This document shows, in pieces, positions 37,540 through 64,000 of a DNA stretch of 64,000 bases. The notes beneath the pieces are model-generated. The model did not search any database. It had not been told where the DNA came from and was given only the letters and a program-made list of their open reading frames with translations. Within the stretch, counting starts at the first letter, position 1; the number at the start of each line of letters is the position of its first letter. This stretch comes from Paraspadella gotoi (taxonomy: Eukaryota; Animalia; Chaetognatha). The stretch covers positions 12,432,790 to 12,496,789 of the forward strand of contig CM119269.1 of NCBI GenBank assembly GCA_051294375.1. The letters are read 5' to 3'. The position numbers and the translations under genes were made by a program.

Positions 37540-37830
37540 ACATGTGAAATGCGTTGTTTTTTTGTCGAACCGAACCTCTTCCAACAAAGCGACATCTGTG
37601 GCCGATTCGAAGAGGCCGTAAACGATGTCGCTGTCTTCTCTCTTTCCGACGGGCGACGCATGCGCCGCCGTCGAAGCGGTTCGCCTCGCCTCGCCTCGCC
37701 TCTGCCGCCGTGACACGTGTGTGCCCAAAGAATGAGACACGCCGGTGACTCGAGTCACTCTCTCTTCGCGCCTCTTTATAACCAAAGCATTTTCCTTCGC
37801 TTAAAGTTTTTTCTCGATTCCATCAACAAA
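37540..37830 (+). promoter_or_regulatory. Putative promoter of the housekeeping-gene cluster
   Basis: CpG-rich patch, perfect palindrome gtgactcgagtcac (37745-37758), TATAA at 37777, pyrimidine tract ~30 nt downstream; probable 5' UTR intron 37978-38086 (gtatgt..ttacag). Confidence 0.45.
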
Positions 37831-38182
37831 ATATTTGGTTTCTTTTTTATTTTCCTTTTCTCGGGGCGTTTCTCCATCGAAAAAAAGTCGGCATATGGCT
37901 GGCTGACTGCCTCTCACGTGTTGAAAATTTTTGCAACCTAACCGACAGCCTTAAGCCATTTTTTTTCTTTTTTGGTCGTATGTTTCTTCGTTTCGCAATC
38001 GGACATTGTCTATATCATTTGCGTTTCATGTGAATGTGTTCACACGCGGGTTTTTTTTCCTAACTGTTCTCGTTCTTTTCTTACAGGGCGTGAAGATCTC
38101 TTTAAGTTCGTTCCGCTCTTTAATTAAAACTTTGCTAATACTCCAAAGATTTTGCGTATTTAAAATCGCTTAAACCCAAAAA

Positions 38183-41100
38183 ATGCCGAAAGAAAAGGTT
38201 CACATCAACATCGTCGTCATCGGCCATGTCGACTCCGGGAAATCCACCACGACTGGTCATCTGATCTACAAATGCGGTGGCATTGACAAACGTGTCATCG
38301 AGAAGTTCGAGAAGGAAGCCCAGGAGGTGAGTCTACTTCTGAAGATGTTCTAATTTGTATCCAGTTTTTTTTATATGATTATATTTCATTATTATATATC
38401 AGATGGGCAAAGGTTCCTTCAAGTATGCTTGGGTTTTGGACAAGCTAAAGGCCGAGCGTGAGCGTGGTATCACCATTGACATCGCCCTGTGGAAGTTCCA
38501 GACCGATAACTTTTACATCACCATTATTGACGCTCCGGGTCACAGGTAGTTTCCTTATTTTCTAACTGACTTGAAATTTTTTTAACTGCAGTTAAAGAGC
38601 ATTTAGGTTTTATTCCTATTTCTTTTTCCTAGGGATTTCATCAAAAACATGATTACCGGTACCTCTCAAGCCGATTGCGCTGTTCTGATTGTTGCTGCCG
38701 GAACTGGTGCGTATTTAATCAGTTGCTAAATATATCATTTTATGGCTAATCTTTCTTCTACTTAACCATTTTTTTCTTCAGGCGAGTTTGAGGCTGGCAT
38801 CTCTAAAGAAGGTCAGACGCGCGAGCACGCTCTTCTCGCTTACACCCTGGGAGTTAAACAACTCATCGTTGGCGTTAACAAGATGGACACGACGGCTCCC
38901 AAGCCTTACAGCGAAGAGCGTTTCTTGGAAATCCGTAAGGAGGTTCAAAATTACATCAAGAAGATCGGTTACAATCCCAAGGAGGTCATATTTTGCCCCA
39001 TTTCTGGCTGGCATGGAGATAACATGCTGGAAAAGTCTGAGAAGATGACGTGGTGGGCTAGTGTAAGTTCAAAACACTATTTGTATTGGATTAGTACTTG
39101 TCTGTTGGCGCTCTTTTCAATTACATTATTACTTGGCCTTTAGGGTTATGGTGATGGCAAGAAAGAGAAGGGCTGGGCCAAGGAAACTAAGGAAGGTGGT
39201 GCCAAGTCTGGCATGACCCTCATTGATGCTCTGGACTCAATCAACCCACCCAAGCGTCCCACTGACAAGCCTCTTCGTCTCCTCTGCAAGATGTTTACAA
39301 AATTGGTGGAATTGGCACAGTGCCTGTTGGTGAGGCTCTTTAAAACTAAATTCCTGATGCAGACTAGAAGCTGTTAACTTTTGACAGTTTCTCTATTAAG
39401 TCAGGAATATCAAAATTAAGCTTATCGCGTGATCTATGGCATACTTATTGCAATGATAGGTTACCCCGTGGCTTACTCACAATAAAATGGCTTCTCTGGT
39501 ACCATCTTTTATTTCCTAATCTTTTTTCTTATTTCTAGGCCGTGTTGAAACTGGCAAACTCAAACCCGGCATGGTGGTTAATTTTGCTCCAGCCAATGTT
39601 ACCACTGAGGTTAGTAAAAATATTTTCTTAGATTTTTTTTCCCTTAGACACGATCAGTTAAGGGTTTACCTGCCCACTGATCAGCGAGAAGGGGCCCGGA
39701 ATAATAATGAAGAGATGCCCACCTCGCAGTGTCTTAAATCAATGCCTTCATTCTTTTGAATGATCTAGTATATTCCATAATGTTCCTTGAGCTCTATGGG
39801 CTATAACATGGGACATTGTCCATACTAGCAACAACCATTAATTAATTTTTACAGTGATGAGGTATTTAAATATCAAATTAATTATGTTAAAAAATTAATT
39901 TTAGGTAGCCATTTCTGATGAAATTTATATGCTATGTATACAGTATTAAAATAATTATGAGCATGGCTTATGGTATCAAAAATGCTTTTTTCTAAAGGTA
40001 CTAGCTTAATTAAAATTATATTACTATATAAAGATAGAAAAAAAAATTTAAATCTTACCTTTTTTTTATAGATTCTGATAAAGCATAAAAAGTTAAATAA
40101 AAAATATTAGTTTTTAAAATTTTTTGTTTTTTAAGTGATAATGTAAAAAAATTATGGTCTTCTTATTTTTGACTCGCTTATCATAAAAATATTTCCAGAA
40201 TTATACTTTGTGTAGACAACTTTTTATGAGCCATCTGGATTTAAAATTTCCAAAAAGGTATTTTGGCCTTTATCTACAAAAAAATATTAATAAATTAATT
40301 ACTTGGTATAGAGCCATGTAAGCATTTTTTTCCCCATTGAAAGTATACTTAAAAATGTATAAATTTTTATATGAGCCAGTACTTGCTCTCAATTTTTGAC
40401 TCACCCCATTGTGGCTACCCCTATTTCAGGTCAAGTCTGTGGAAATGCACCACGAGTCTTTGCCGAGGCTCTACCCGGAGACAACGTCGGTTTCAACGTA
40501 AAGAACGTCTCCGTTAAGGAGATCCGTCGTGGAAATGTCGCTTCTGACTCGAAGAACGACCCCGCCAAGGAGTGCAAGAACTTCATGGCTCAGGTAAATA
40601 GTTAACACATGTAATAATCAATATCTACAGAAATATTTAGTTGATTATAAACTACTGAGTAACCATTAATTCATTAACCGGTATTTTATTTAAGACAGGT
40701 TTTTATTTTTTTAATTTTTTTCATTCTCTTTTAGGTGATCGTTCTCAACCATCCTGGTCAGATTAAAAACGGGTATGCCCCTGTCATGGATTGCCACACC
40801 GCTCACATTGCTGTCAAGTTTGAAGAGATTCTTAAGCGGTAAGATTATAATCACTTAATGACCTTAAGCATCTCGTTAATTCGTATTTTAATTTTATAAT
40901 TTAGTTGTGATCGCCGTTCCGGCAAGGAGTTGGAGGCCTTCCCCAAAACAATCAAGAACGGTGACGCCGCCATCGTTGAAATGATTCCCTCAAAGCCAAT
41001 GGCGGTTTGAGGCCTTCCTCGGACTACCCCGCGCACTTCGAACGCACCCGATTCGCCGTTCGTGACATGAGGCAGACCGTCGCCGTCGGCGTCATCAAGC

Positions 41101-62178: not shown

Positions 62179-63092
62179 ATGGGAGAGAAAAAAGGACTTC
62201 AAGCTGTGCAGGTTTTCGGGCGGAAGAAGACGGCAACCGCCGTCGCTCACTGCAAGAGAGGAAACGGGCTCTTGAAGGTAAGTCGCGATTATCTTTTGCG
62301 CGACTTTTGACTTGTAATTAAAAATATTAATACGTTTATTGATTAAAAAGGTTAATGGTCGACCTCTTCATCTCGTCGAACCCACAACTTTGAGATCCAA
62401 ACTCGAAGAACCCGTCTTGTTGCTGGGAAAGGATAGGTAATTGCGTTCGGCTTAGCCAGTTGGATGTATTTTCAATCTTTATTCTCACATTTCATGTCGT
62501 TTCAGATTCGCGGCCGTTGACATCAAAGTTCGCGTCAAGGGAGGTGGTCACGTCGCCCAGGTTTACGGTAAGTTCTCATTCTACTCGTTCCCTTTCCTTT
62601 TCTGGTCAAGGTACCTGGATGATCTCGTTCAAATGATCTTCTCGGCATTTAGACCAGATAAATAAAACCGACCCGAAAACCCTGCTCGGCGGAGATTTTC
62701 GTATCGCCGAGTTTCATTTATCGTTAGGGTTACAAATATTTTCTCATATTGACGTAGCATTATTATTATTTAGTCATTAAATAATACTACCTCATTTATA
62801 TCTCGCTTTCCCTCACTTCAGCCATCCGCCAGGCGATTTCCAAATCCCTCGTCGCCTATTATCAAAAATACGTGGACGAGGCGTCAAAGAAGGAGATTAA
62901 AGACATCCTCATCTCTTATGACCGATCTCTTCTCGTCGCCGACCCGAGGTCACTCCGTCACATCAAATTCTTTTTATTTATTTTTAATCTATTCTAATAT
63001 TTTTTTTATTTTTTTGTTCTTTTAGGCGAAACGAACCGAAGAAATTCGGTGGTCCCGGCGCTCGCGCTCGTTACCAAAAGTCCTACCGTTAA
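62179..63092 (+). CDS. RPS16: 40S ribosomal protein S16 (uS9), 5 exons
   Basis: [56 protein letters not shown]. Confidence 0.97.
62601..62737 (+). ncRNA. Intronic H/ACA snoRNA
   Basis: Hairpin tctggtc/gaccaga, H box AGATAA, hairpin accc..ctcggcg/cgccgag..gggt, ACA+3. Confidence 0.7.
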
Positions 63093-63622
63093 CTCTTTCA
63101 TTTTTGTTTAGTTGCTACTTCATTTCCCAAGTTTGACCCTTTTGACGAATTTACATTGAAACGTTCTTCCGTTTTTCATCTAGAACCTTTCATTTTCTTC
63201 CAATAACCTCAGATACCCCAATCCCAAATTTTCTGGATTTAAAAACTGGACAAATTGCCAGAAATCCTAAGTCACCGACTCGCTTTAGATTAAATTGGGA
63301 GAAAGAAACTTGTTTCGCTCGAATATTTCTCTCTCCTGCTAAAAATGTTTGAAAAGTATTAGATTCCATTGATAGCATTGTTTAGAATACTTTCCTCTTG
63401 ATCATTGTTCCATTTTGTATCCTTTTATAATTCAATATAGTTTTAAAGAGAACACCCGAGCGATTCCACCAATTGGCGTTTTGTTCCTCATCGAGCGAAT
63501 CGGAGTCCGTAACTCATTTAAAACCCCGCCGCTCTTTGATTTTACTACTACAAAGGTTCGCAAAGACTTCATAGTATTTTTCTAAAATGATATTTGTTAA
63601 TAAGTTAATCTTTTTAGACAAG

Positions 63623-64000
63623 ATGTCCGGTGGCCTCGAAGTTCTCGCGTTGAAGGAGGAGGACGTGGTCAAGTTCCTGGCTTGCTCCGCTCACCTGGGA
63701 GCCAACCAGAGCGACTTTCAGGTAAGTTCATTCATTTCTCATTTAATATATTGGTTTTAAAATGCTATGTTTCTTTTTAACGTAGATGGAACAGTATTGT
63801 TACAAACGAAAAGCGGACGGACAATACATCATCAACCTGAAGAAGCTTTGGGAGAAGCTGCTTCTTGCTGCCAGAGCGATTGCTGCCATTGAAAATCCCG
63901 GTGAGAAATTTACAAATACCATTAATCCCTAGCTCATTGTTTTGCTCGGTGCATTCGGACTTTTCCACCGTTTCTTTTTAGCTGACGTCTGCGTCATCTC
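63623..64000 (+). CDS. RPSA: 40S ribosomal protein SA (uS2/p40), 5' part; continues beyond the window
   Basis: [78 protein letters not shown]. Confidence 0.96.

Follow-up and report, generated by a model that had tools for sequence, protein, structure and literature searches.

A nine-gene cluster of translation genes in the chaetognath Paraspadella gotoi: a likely long operon resolved by spliced-leader trans-splicing

Introduction

Are nine housekeeping genes that follow one another on a single strand of a chaetognath genome expressed as one unit, and if so, how is this unit turned into separate mRNAs? The question is raised by a stretch of 64,000 nucleotides (nt) from Paraspadella gotoi (GenBank assembly GCA_051294375.1, contig CM119269.1, positions 12,432,790 to 12,496,789; hereafter the window), in which two genes for the elongation factor EF1A, one for alpha-tubulin and six for ribosomal proteins (RPs) stand head to tail. 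We consider it probable that the nine genes form one long operon that is co-transcribed and resolved by trans-splicing of a spliced leader (SL). Chaetognath SLs are known, being added to about half of the genes and to the entire RP set (PMC2481426), and 18% of the P. gotoi genes lie in operons, defined by a spacing of <250 bp, the longest of which has nine genes, among them RP, ubiquitin and proteasome genes (PMC12460157). The initial annotation of the window, which found clustered RP genes surprising, was right about the cluster, but chaetognath SL operons with RP genes had already been published (PMC2481426, PMC12460157).

Results

Exon models were derived from the letters of the window, and all 45 coding introns are GT..AG introns. 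All nine genes lie on the + strand in the order EF1A-1, TUBA (presumably alpha-tubulin, judging by sequence motifs), RPL3, RPS21, EF1A-2, RPS18, RPL10, RPS16 and RPSA (Table 1); seven of the nine open reading frames (ORFs) are complete and open, RPSA is open up to the window end, and EF1A-1 is frameshifted. The initial annotation had placed nine genes in this order on one strand, and the exon models bear it out; its stop-to-start gaps (531, 308, 3075, 1091, 543, 338, 306 and 530 bp) were identical on remeasurement, and the cluster does leave the window, as the first three exons of RPSA reach position 64000 and the rest lies outside. Single exons gave Pfam matches for RPL3, RPS21, RPS18, RPL10, tubulin and EF1A, while the RPS16 exon stayed below the cut-off and the RPSA exon had no match; RPSA is identical to a PF00318 protein at 74 of 77 positions. 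Identities to Spadella cephaloptera proteins are 215/217 for RPL10, 149/154 for RPS18 and 135/146 for RPS16, and the last RPL10 exon is 92% identical to a cluster containing S. cephaloptera RPL10, with named proteins of other phyla at 72% or less. By these matches, the DNA belongs to a chaetognath that is probably close to Spadella. Six RP genes among nine neighbours are far beyond chance, as a rough estimate that assumes 80-160 RP genes in 21,072 gives an expectation of 5e-9 to 3e-7 per genome.

Spliced or intronless contigs bridge five of the eight junctions between the genes, three in RNA matching the window and two in relatives; all of these are assemblies, not single molecules. For the window, assembled contigs of four runs (X1-X4) were aligned to positions 44500-52760; the runs were taken as RNA from their spliced joints, X3 and X4 belong to one further study separate from X1, depth is the per-contig mean, and the listed X1 pieces have 0 mismatching letters. 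One X1 contig (1,387 nt, mean depth 1192) contains the last TUBA exon, the entire spacer and RPL3 exon 1 in one piece (44908-45525) and is then spliced through RPL3. Another (853 nt, depth 999) runs from the last RPL3 exons and the stop codon over the joints 48159>50938 and 50994>51058 through RPS21, the two introns behind RPL3 being 2,778 nt and 63 nt long. Downstream of the RPS21 stop, X1 has the joints 51705>51921, 51949>52230 and 52281>52498 (introns of 215, 280 and 216 nt), the second of them with a spliced depth of 1085 versus 6.2 for the contig that retains the intron. The last X1 contig (depth 521) ends 16 nt before the EF1A-2 ATG, which is the limit of the aligned stretch. The three joints behind RPS21 were found again in X3 and X4, and the two behind RPL3 again in X4 (depth 2.6-9.3).

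At two junctions, the spliced RNA of the upstream gene therefore extends to ~140-175 nt from the next ATG. The gaps of 3,075 and 1,091 bp shrink to 234 and 380 nt after splicing, because they consist mostly of introns in the 3' untranslated region (UTR), and the stop-to-start distances after known splicing are 234-543 nt. The 3,075 bp gap had been described as filled with transposable elements, but the RNA joints reveal that it is mostly the one intron of 2,778 nt. A single low-depth X3 contig stops 8 nt 5' of the RPL3 acceptor, which is a weak hint at most. Assemblers can clip short SL tips, and we therefore rejected unbroken contigs at the acceptors as an argument against SL addition; flat contig depth was likewise rejected as a measure of junction abundance, and so was the lack of RPL3 coverage in X3 and X4 as a finding, as these records may be filtered.

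For the relatives, metagenome contigs were scanned with the C-terminal part of chaetognath-type RPL10, which gave 43 loci, of which L001-L013 were analyzed by tblastn and all 43 were searched for SLs. Three loci (L001, L002 and L003) are close to the query (89-94%), and all three are intronless dicistrons in the gene order of the window; the other 40, distant RPL10 relatives at 42-66%, were dropped. L002 consists of RPS18, 138 nt and RPL10, and L003 and L001 consist of RPL10, 292 or 310 nt, and RPS16. SL matches were found in L002 and L003 only, which open with 25 and 26 nt, respectively, from the 3' end of SL2.0, as compared by eye with Table 3 of PMC2481426. The same SL2.0 heads RPS18 in L002 and RPL10 in L003, and RPL10, which is internal in the window and in L002, is directly SL-led in L003. 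The host lineage hence performs SL trans-splicing, as contigs of relatives bear SL2.0 and the RPL10 and RPS18 of the window are near-identical to those of S. cephaloptera; the SL2.0 leader itself is not in the window, where the best match has at least 8 mismatches of 26.

Contig sizes add indirect evidence. The longest contig exceeds 1.6 kb for 5 of the 14 listed members of the RPL10 cluster, and each exact size recurs for RPS18 (2527, 2426) or RPS16 (2548, 1697, 1671), with one size-matched RPS18/RPL10 pair also agreeing in its number of contigs, 33. The remaining nine members have longest contigs of 1066 nt or less, which are monocistron-sized and fit resolved mRNAs, as expected. That the order RPS18-RPL10-RPS16 is kept in other chaetognaths suggests that selection may act on the arrangement. 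In the RPS16 cluster, P0163 (582 aa) was rejected as a polycistron read-through, being a chimera with an unrelated long protein, and N-terminal extensions on the plankton-derived RPL10 proteins P0004 and P0005 also look like assembly chimeras, that of P0004 resembling what we take to be a translated appendicularian leader. As a separate observation on one contig, L003 ends at a pyrimidine-rich AG (1640-1660), as if the acceptor of a next cistron followed.

Acceptors were scored with a matrix built from the 45 coding acceptors, the threshold of 4.4 bits being set post hoc at the lowest observed value. An AG acceptor is predicted 0-39 nt before the ATG at seven of the eight downstream genes (45 nt window; positions 41749, 45349, 51194, 59294, 60766, 62161 and 63618/63623), which none of 5000 shuffles reached by count or summed score, while the single-gene acceptors are individually weak (P 0.004-0.14). 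The RPL3 and RPS21 acceptors are read through in X1 and thus are not cis-spliced there, and a donor of moderate strength at 41529 might delimit a 5'-UTR intron together with the TUBA acceptor. AATAAA occurs 0 times in 2,933 nt upstream of the acceptors versus 2.1 expected, which is not significant (P(0)=0.13), and its depletion was rejected as a signal. The eight spliced spacers contain no TATAWAW, and each spacer has 2-11 upstream ATGs.

The initial annotation had seen a sole promoter-like CpG/TATA patch before the first gene. The densest non-coding CpG patch between 36 and 64 kb does lie there (37600; 23 CpG in 150 nt), but it is not the sole one, as further CpG-rich patches lie at 41260 (17), 59850 (15) and 58800 (13), and the TATA-like site at 37775-37781 falls outside the TATAWAW consensus. 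CpG is nowhere depleted (observed/expected 1.0-1.9), and because of this and of the other rich patches, it is a poor promoter mark here and was rejected as such. The contrast once drawn with a neighbouring receptor gene of ~30 kb failed, as it set a gene length against gaps, and Pfam gave no receptor domain in the upstream ORFs scanned.

Discussion

Our data argue well for the operon in two blocks, one from TUBA to the EF1A-2 leader and the other from RPS18 to RPS16, and the whole nine-gene stretch is likely to belong to it. The single polycistronic, SL-resolved unit of the initial annotation is supported in its co-transcription and SL resolution by the five bridges, the SL on a relative's RPL10 and the seven acceptors, whereas one unit for all nine genes is a likely extension of this, and the size comparison of RPS16 with RPSA came out blank. 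Several points weigh against one unit of nine genes. The bridges, which in the matching RNA come from contigs aligned to 44500-52760, take in five of the eight junctions but not EF1A-1>TUBA, EF1A-2>RPS18 and RPS16>RPSA, and no longest-contig size of the 15 RPS16 members listed recurs among the RPSA members listed. We infer continuity across these three junctions, as well as a single start site, an SL in the P. gotoi unit and the positions of the 3' ends. The contig that leads to EF1A-2 has a depth of 521, down from 1085, and this gene also has no good acceptor within 45 nt of its ATG (best score -8.4), and 16% of 407 control spacer windows reach the acceptor threshold as well. The flat contig depth means that a low-depth bridge, from read-through or DNA, could link TUBA and RPL3. 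X2 has no inter-gene joint among those listed, none of the 21 loose ends listed of 416 in X1-X4 is SL-like, and L003 ends 209 nt past the RPS16 stop. Furthermore, an SL on RPL10 alone does not prove an operon, because about half of the chaetognath genes, including all RP genes, receive one (PMC2481426).

The three unbridged junctions could also be borders between at least two adjacent SL operons, or mark a hybrid with internal promoters, for example EF1A-1/TUBA/RPL3/RPS21, EF1A-2, RPS18/RPL10/RPS16 and RPSA. The depth drop ahead of EF1A-2 would fit this, as would the SL at RPS18 with which L002 begins, the mostly monocistron-sized contigs of RPSA relatives that share no size with RPS16, the possible 5'-UTR intron between donor 41529 and the TUBA acceptor, and the CpG-rich patches at 41260, 58800 and 59850. 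We nevertheless hold such a subdivision to be rather unlikely: five junctions are bridged, including that from RPS21 to the EF1A-2 leader, the unbridged gaps (530-543 nt) resemble the bridged ones (234-380 nt spliced), and two of the patches (41260 and 58800) lie behind the EF1A-1 and EF1A-2 stops, as GC-rich beginnings of 3' UTRs would.

The unbroken, fully spliced X1 contigs with depths of ~1000 over junctions, together with the three dicistronic metagenome loci and the five shared longest-contig sizes, are also what would be seen if fully spliced multi-ORF mRNAs were the stable end product, translated by re-initiation or internal entry, with SL resolution being minor. We regard this as quite improbable, since the depth is averaged over each contig and assemblers can remove SL tips, so that an unbroken contig is silent on the abundance of a junction, and since fully spliced dicistronic intermediates are known from SL operons of Brugia and Ciona (PMC1657053, PMC1488885); the SL immediately before RPL10 in L003, the 9 of 14 listed RPL10 members with monocistron-sized contigs only, and the 2-11 upstream ATGs per spacer point in the same direction. 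Nine independent, tightly packed genes with their own promoters would reduce the bridges to read-through or assembly chimeras, of which P0163 is an example, and the single start site of the operon is a prediction. However, splicing of the upstream transcripts continues up to ~140-175 nt from the following ATG, RPS18 and RPL10 are just 138 nt apart in L002, and chimeras would have to recreate the gene order of the window in other species and studies, which makes independent genes quite improbable.

In the operon that we favour, RNA polymerase II would start near 37.8 kb and read through the cluster. Cis-splicing would strip the introns, including the five that lie in non-coding sequence behind the RPL3 and RPS21 stops, as seen for 44.5-52.8 kb, and this would release at least 15 small nucleolar RNAs (snoRNAs). 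For each downstream gene, the SL would be joined at an unpaired AG acceptor that lies 0-39 nt ahead of the ATG, as seen in relatives only, for RPS18 and RPL10, and each upstream mRNA would end near that acceptor, following the precedents of Spadella and Ciona; the 'spacers' would therefore be mainly 3' UTR. Spliced dicistronic RNAs would be intermediates, with cis-splicing running ahead of resolution. A bolder version, namely a phylum-wide super-operon of more than nine cistrons with slow or regulated resolution and an abundant pool of fully spliced multi-ORF mRNAs, in which UTR introns serve as snoRNA hosts and one promoter drives RPs, EF1A, tubulin and at least 15 rRNA guides, is speculative, and we doubt it.

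The unit would likely be a long and functionally coherent addition to the chaetognath SL operons already known. With the S. cephaloptera RPS14-PCNA operon, in which 3 nt separate poly(A) site and acceptor (PMC2481426), and with the P. gotoi operons (PMC12460157), it shares the phylum, SL2.0 in relatives, and same-strand housekeeping and RP genes; both papers report no operon-specific SL in chaetognaths. It differs from them in having at least nine cistrons over >26 kb, translation genes and tubulin only, two EF1A paralogs, snoRNA-bearing cis introns of up to 2.8 kb between ORFs, and an order kept in other chaetognaths, and within the window, unlike in the longest P. gotoi operon, ubiquitin and proteasome genes are absent. 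No account of this particular cluster was found in the literature, and Supplementary Table 1 of PMC12460157, outside that search, may list it. Operons of nematodes and Oikopleura often contain RP genes, and dicistronic RNAs that are spliced or still unresolved are established as intermediates (PMC1657053, PMC1488885, PMC7986045, PMC8047918, PMC2566580). In tunicates (Ciona, Oikopleura), too, the SL is not operon-specific and unresolved dicistronic cDNAs were found, at least 14 Oikopleura RP genes lie in candidate operons, and in Ciona operons without intercistronic sequence, the upstream mRNA ends at the acceptor of the downstream gene, often with no AATAAA; however, Ciona has another SL and lineage, most of its RP genes are not trans-spliced, and its operons are mostly dicistronic (PMC1488885). 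Nematode operons of 2-8 genes are enriched for RP genes (49% of 133), and fully cis-spliced dicistronic intermediates were detected for Brugia rpl-27a/rpa-1 (PMC1657053), whereas the gene partners differ from ours and C. elegans has a dedicated SL2 for downstream genes, in contrast to chaetognaths.

Co-transcription of RP genes with an elongation factor is also seen in bacterial and archaeal RP operons (PMC8047918). The RNA is, however, spliced here and likely cut into capped monocistrons, and the SL on the internal RPL10 of a relative speaks against translation of an uncleaved RNA. The eukaryotic analogue of bacterial ribosomal operons proposed initially is therefore apt for gene content but not for the mature mRNAs, which are likely monocistronic, and the likeness would be convergent rather than inherited. 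Five of the six RP genes are, as we take it, universal, and the order uS13 ... uS9, uS2 and an EF-Tu before uL3 seem to echo prokaryotic clusters, a resemblance that is most likely coincidence.

The nine genes within the window alone tie with the longest reported chaetognath operon, with an unusually coherent function. On this locus it can be tested whether animal operons couple ribosome parts, an elongation factor and the output of snoRNAs to a single promoter, and how 3' ends arise beside trans-splice sites. Operon calls from short genomic distance can miss junctions with 1-3 kb of UTR introns in the gap: the <250 bp of PMC12460157 refers to gene-to-gene distance, and the two junctions where spliced upstream RNA comes within ~140-175 nt of the ATG have far wider genomic gaps.

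Further features of the window

The snoRNAs that had been noted in the cluster were borne out by Rfam matches and a C/D box scan. SNORD36 alone scored above the gathering score; among 17 matches at E up to 10, a further six in introns had E<0.02 (two SNORA73-like, and SNORA9-, SNORD14-, SNORA38- and SNORA26-like; five of them H/ACA-like). Of the 24 introns with a length of 140 nt or more, 10 have a C/D box pair 69-88 nt upstream of the acceptor (mean 0.22 and maximum 3 in 2000 shuffles). In total, ~15 snoRNA candidates are predicted, three of them in introns between ORFs, and the genes of the window are predicted intronic snoRNA hosts with typical positions within the introns.

Table 1. Positions of genes, spacers, candidate promoter and snoRNA candidates in the window.
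Feature	Position	Strand	Remarks
Candidate promoter	37600..37810	+	CpG-dense patch and weak TATA-like site
EF1A copy 1	38183..41253	+	10 exons; 9 indels versus copy 2
SNORA73/U17-like H/ACA	39645..39836	+	EF1A-1 intron 6; second copy 56632-56823 in EF1A-2 intron 5; E 2.6e-11 and 1.6e-10, below gathering
Alpha-tubulin (TUBA)	41785..45067	+	8 exons, 450 aa; predicted trans-splice acceptor 36 nt 5' of ATG
SNORA38-like H/ACA candidate	43430..43557	+	TUBA intron 7; E 0.0035, below gathering
TUBA>RPL3 spacer	45068..45375	+	308 nt; unspliced read-through in contig spliced elsewhere; predicted acceptor 45349
RPL3	45376..48157	+	10 exons, 400 aa; Pfam; introns borne out by RNA contig joints
SNORD36 C/D	45567..45638	+	RPL3 intron 1; above gathering
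SNORA9-like H/ACA candidate	47301..47435	+	RPL3 intron 8; E 1.2e-6, below gathering
RPL3>RPS21 spacer	48158..51232	+	introns 48161-50938, 50996-51058; non-coding exon 50939-50995; 234 nt spliced; predicted acceptor 51194
C/D candidate	50804..50867	+	inter-cistron intron past RPL3; copy of 47904-47967
RPS21	51233..51684	+	2 coding exons, 83 aa; Pfam
SNORD14-like C/D candidate	51349..51447	+	RPS21 intron 1; E 0.0011
RPS21>EF1A-2 spacer	51685..52775	+	introns 51708-51922, 51952-52231, 52282-52497; 380 nt spliced
SNORA26-like H/ACA candidate	52000..52109	+	inter-cistron intron past RPS21; E 0.018, below gathering
C/D candidate	52363..52428	+	inter-cistron intron past RPS21; boxes and position only
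EF1A copy 2	52776..58789	+	10 exons, 474 aa, intact; Pfam
RPS18	59333..60452	+	3 exons, 154 aa; Pfam; predicted acceptor 39 nt 5' of ATG
RPL10	60791..61872	+	4 exons, 217 aa; Pfam; predicted acceptor 25 nt 5' of ATG
RPS16	62179..63092	+	5 exons, 146 aa; predicted acceptor 18 nt 5' of ATG
RPSA	63623..64000	+	first 3 exons, continues beyond window

RPL3 intron 9, including its C/D snoRNA, and the last RPL3 exon recur at 89% identity beyond the RPL3 stop (50804-50995), where the copy is now a non-coding exon and snoRNA host; this is a putative snoRNA duplicated along with its splice context. RPL3 intron 3 contains a U83-like C/D candidate (46304-46388, E 0.34). Vertebrate RPL3 also hosts U83, and an old host-guide pairing is possible. 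The long inter-cistron intron contains a multi-copy repeat (49109-49351; further copies at 5762, 7138 and 18370-18887) with a summed contig depth of up to 36,655 in X1 and a Twister-P5-like match on the - strand (49182-49224, E 0.14, below gathering), and it is possibly a ribozyme-bearing retroelement.

Both EF1A genes of the initial annotation are present, but the nine indels of EF1A-1 relative to EF1A-2 had gone unmentioned. Seven of them crowd into 40 bp (41006-41045), and the copies differ by 138 synonymous and 7 non-synonymous codons, so that the frameshifts are likely assembly errors rather than signs of a pseudogene. Over 370 nt, the two paralogs agree at 95.7% in the SNORA73-like intron region and its flanking exon (39537-39906 versus 56526-56893), and the exon at 40423-40595 is 94.8% identical; despite the 138 synonymous differences, these patches may reflect local gene conversion or strong constraint. 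After the KMTWW motif, both copies have a charged glycine-rich stretch (EF1A-2 exons 3-4, 56144-56330), presumably an insertion relative to typical animal EF1A. Upstream of the cluster lie a long intronless ORF on the + strand (13764-16286) with a CCCH zinc finger and weak BACK and F5/8 type C matches, and, on the - strand, an integrase-like retrotransposon remnant (9371-10682; rve_3, E 0.001).

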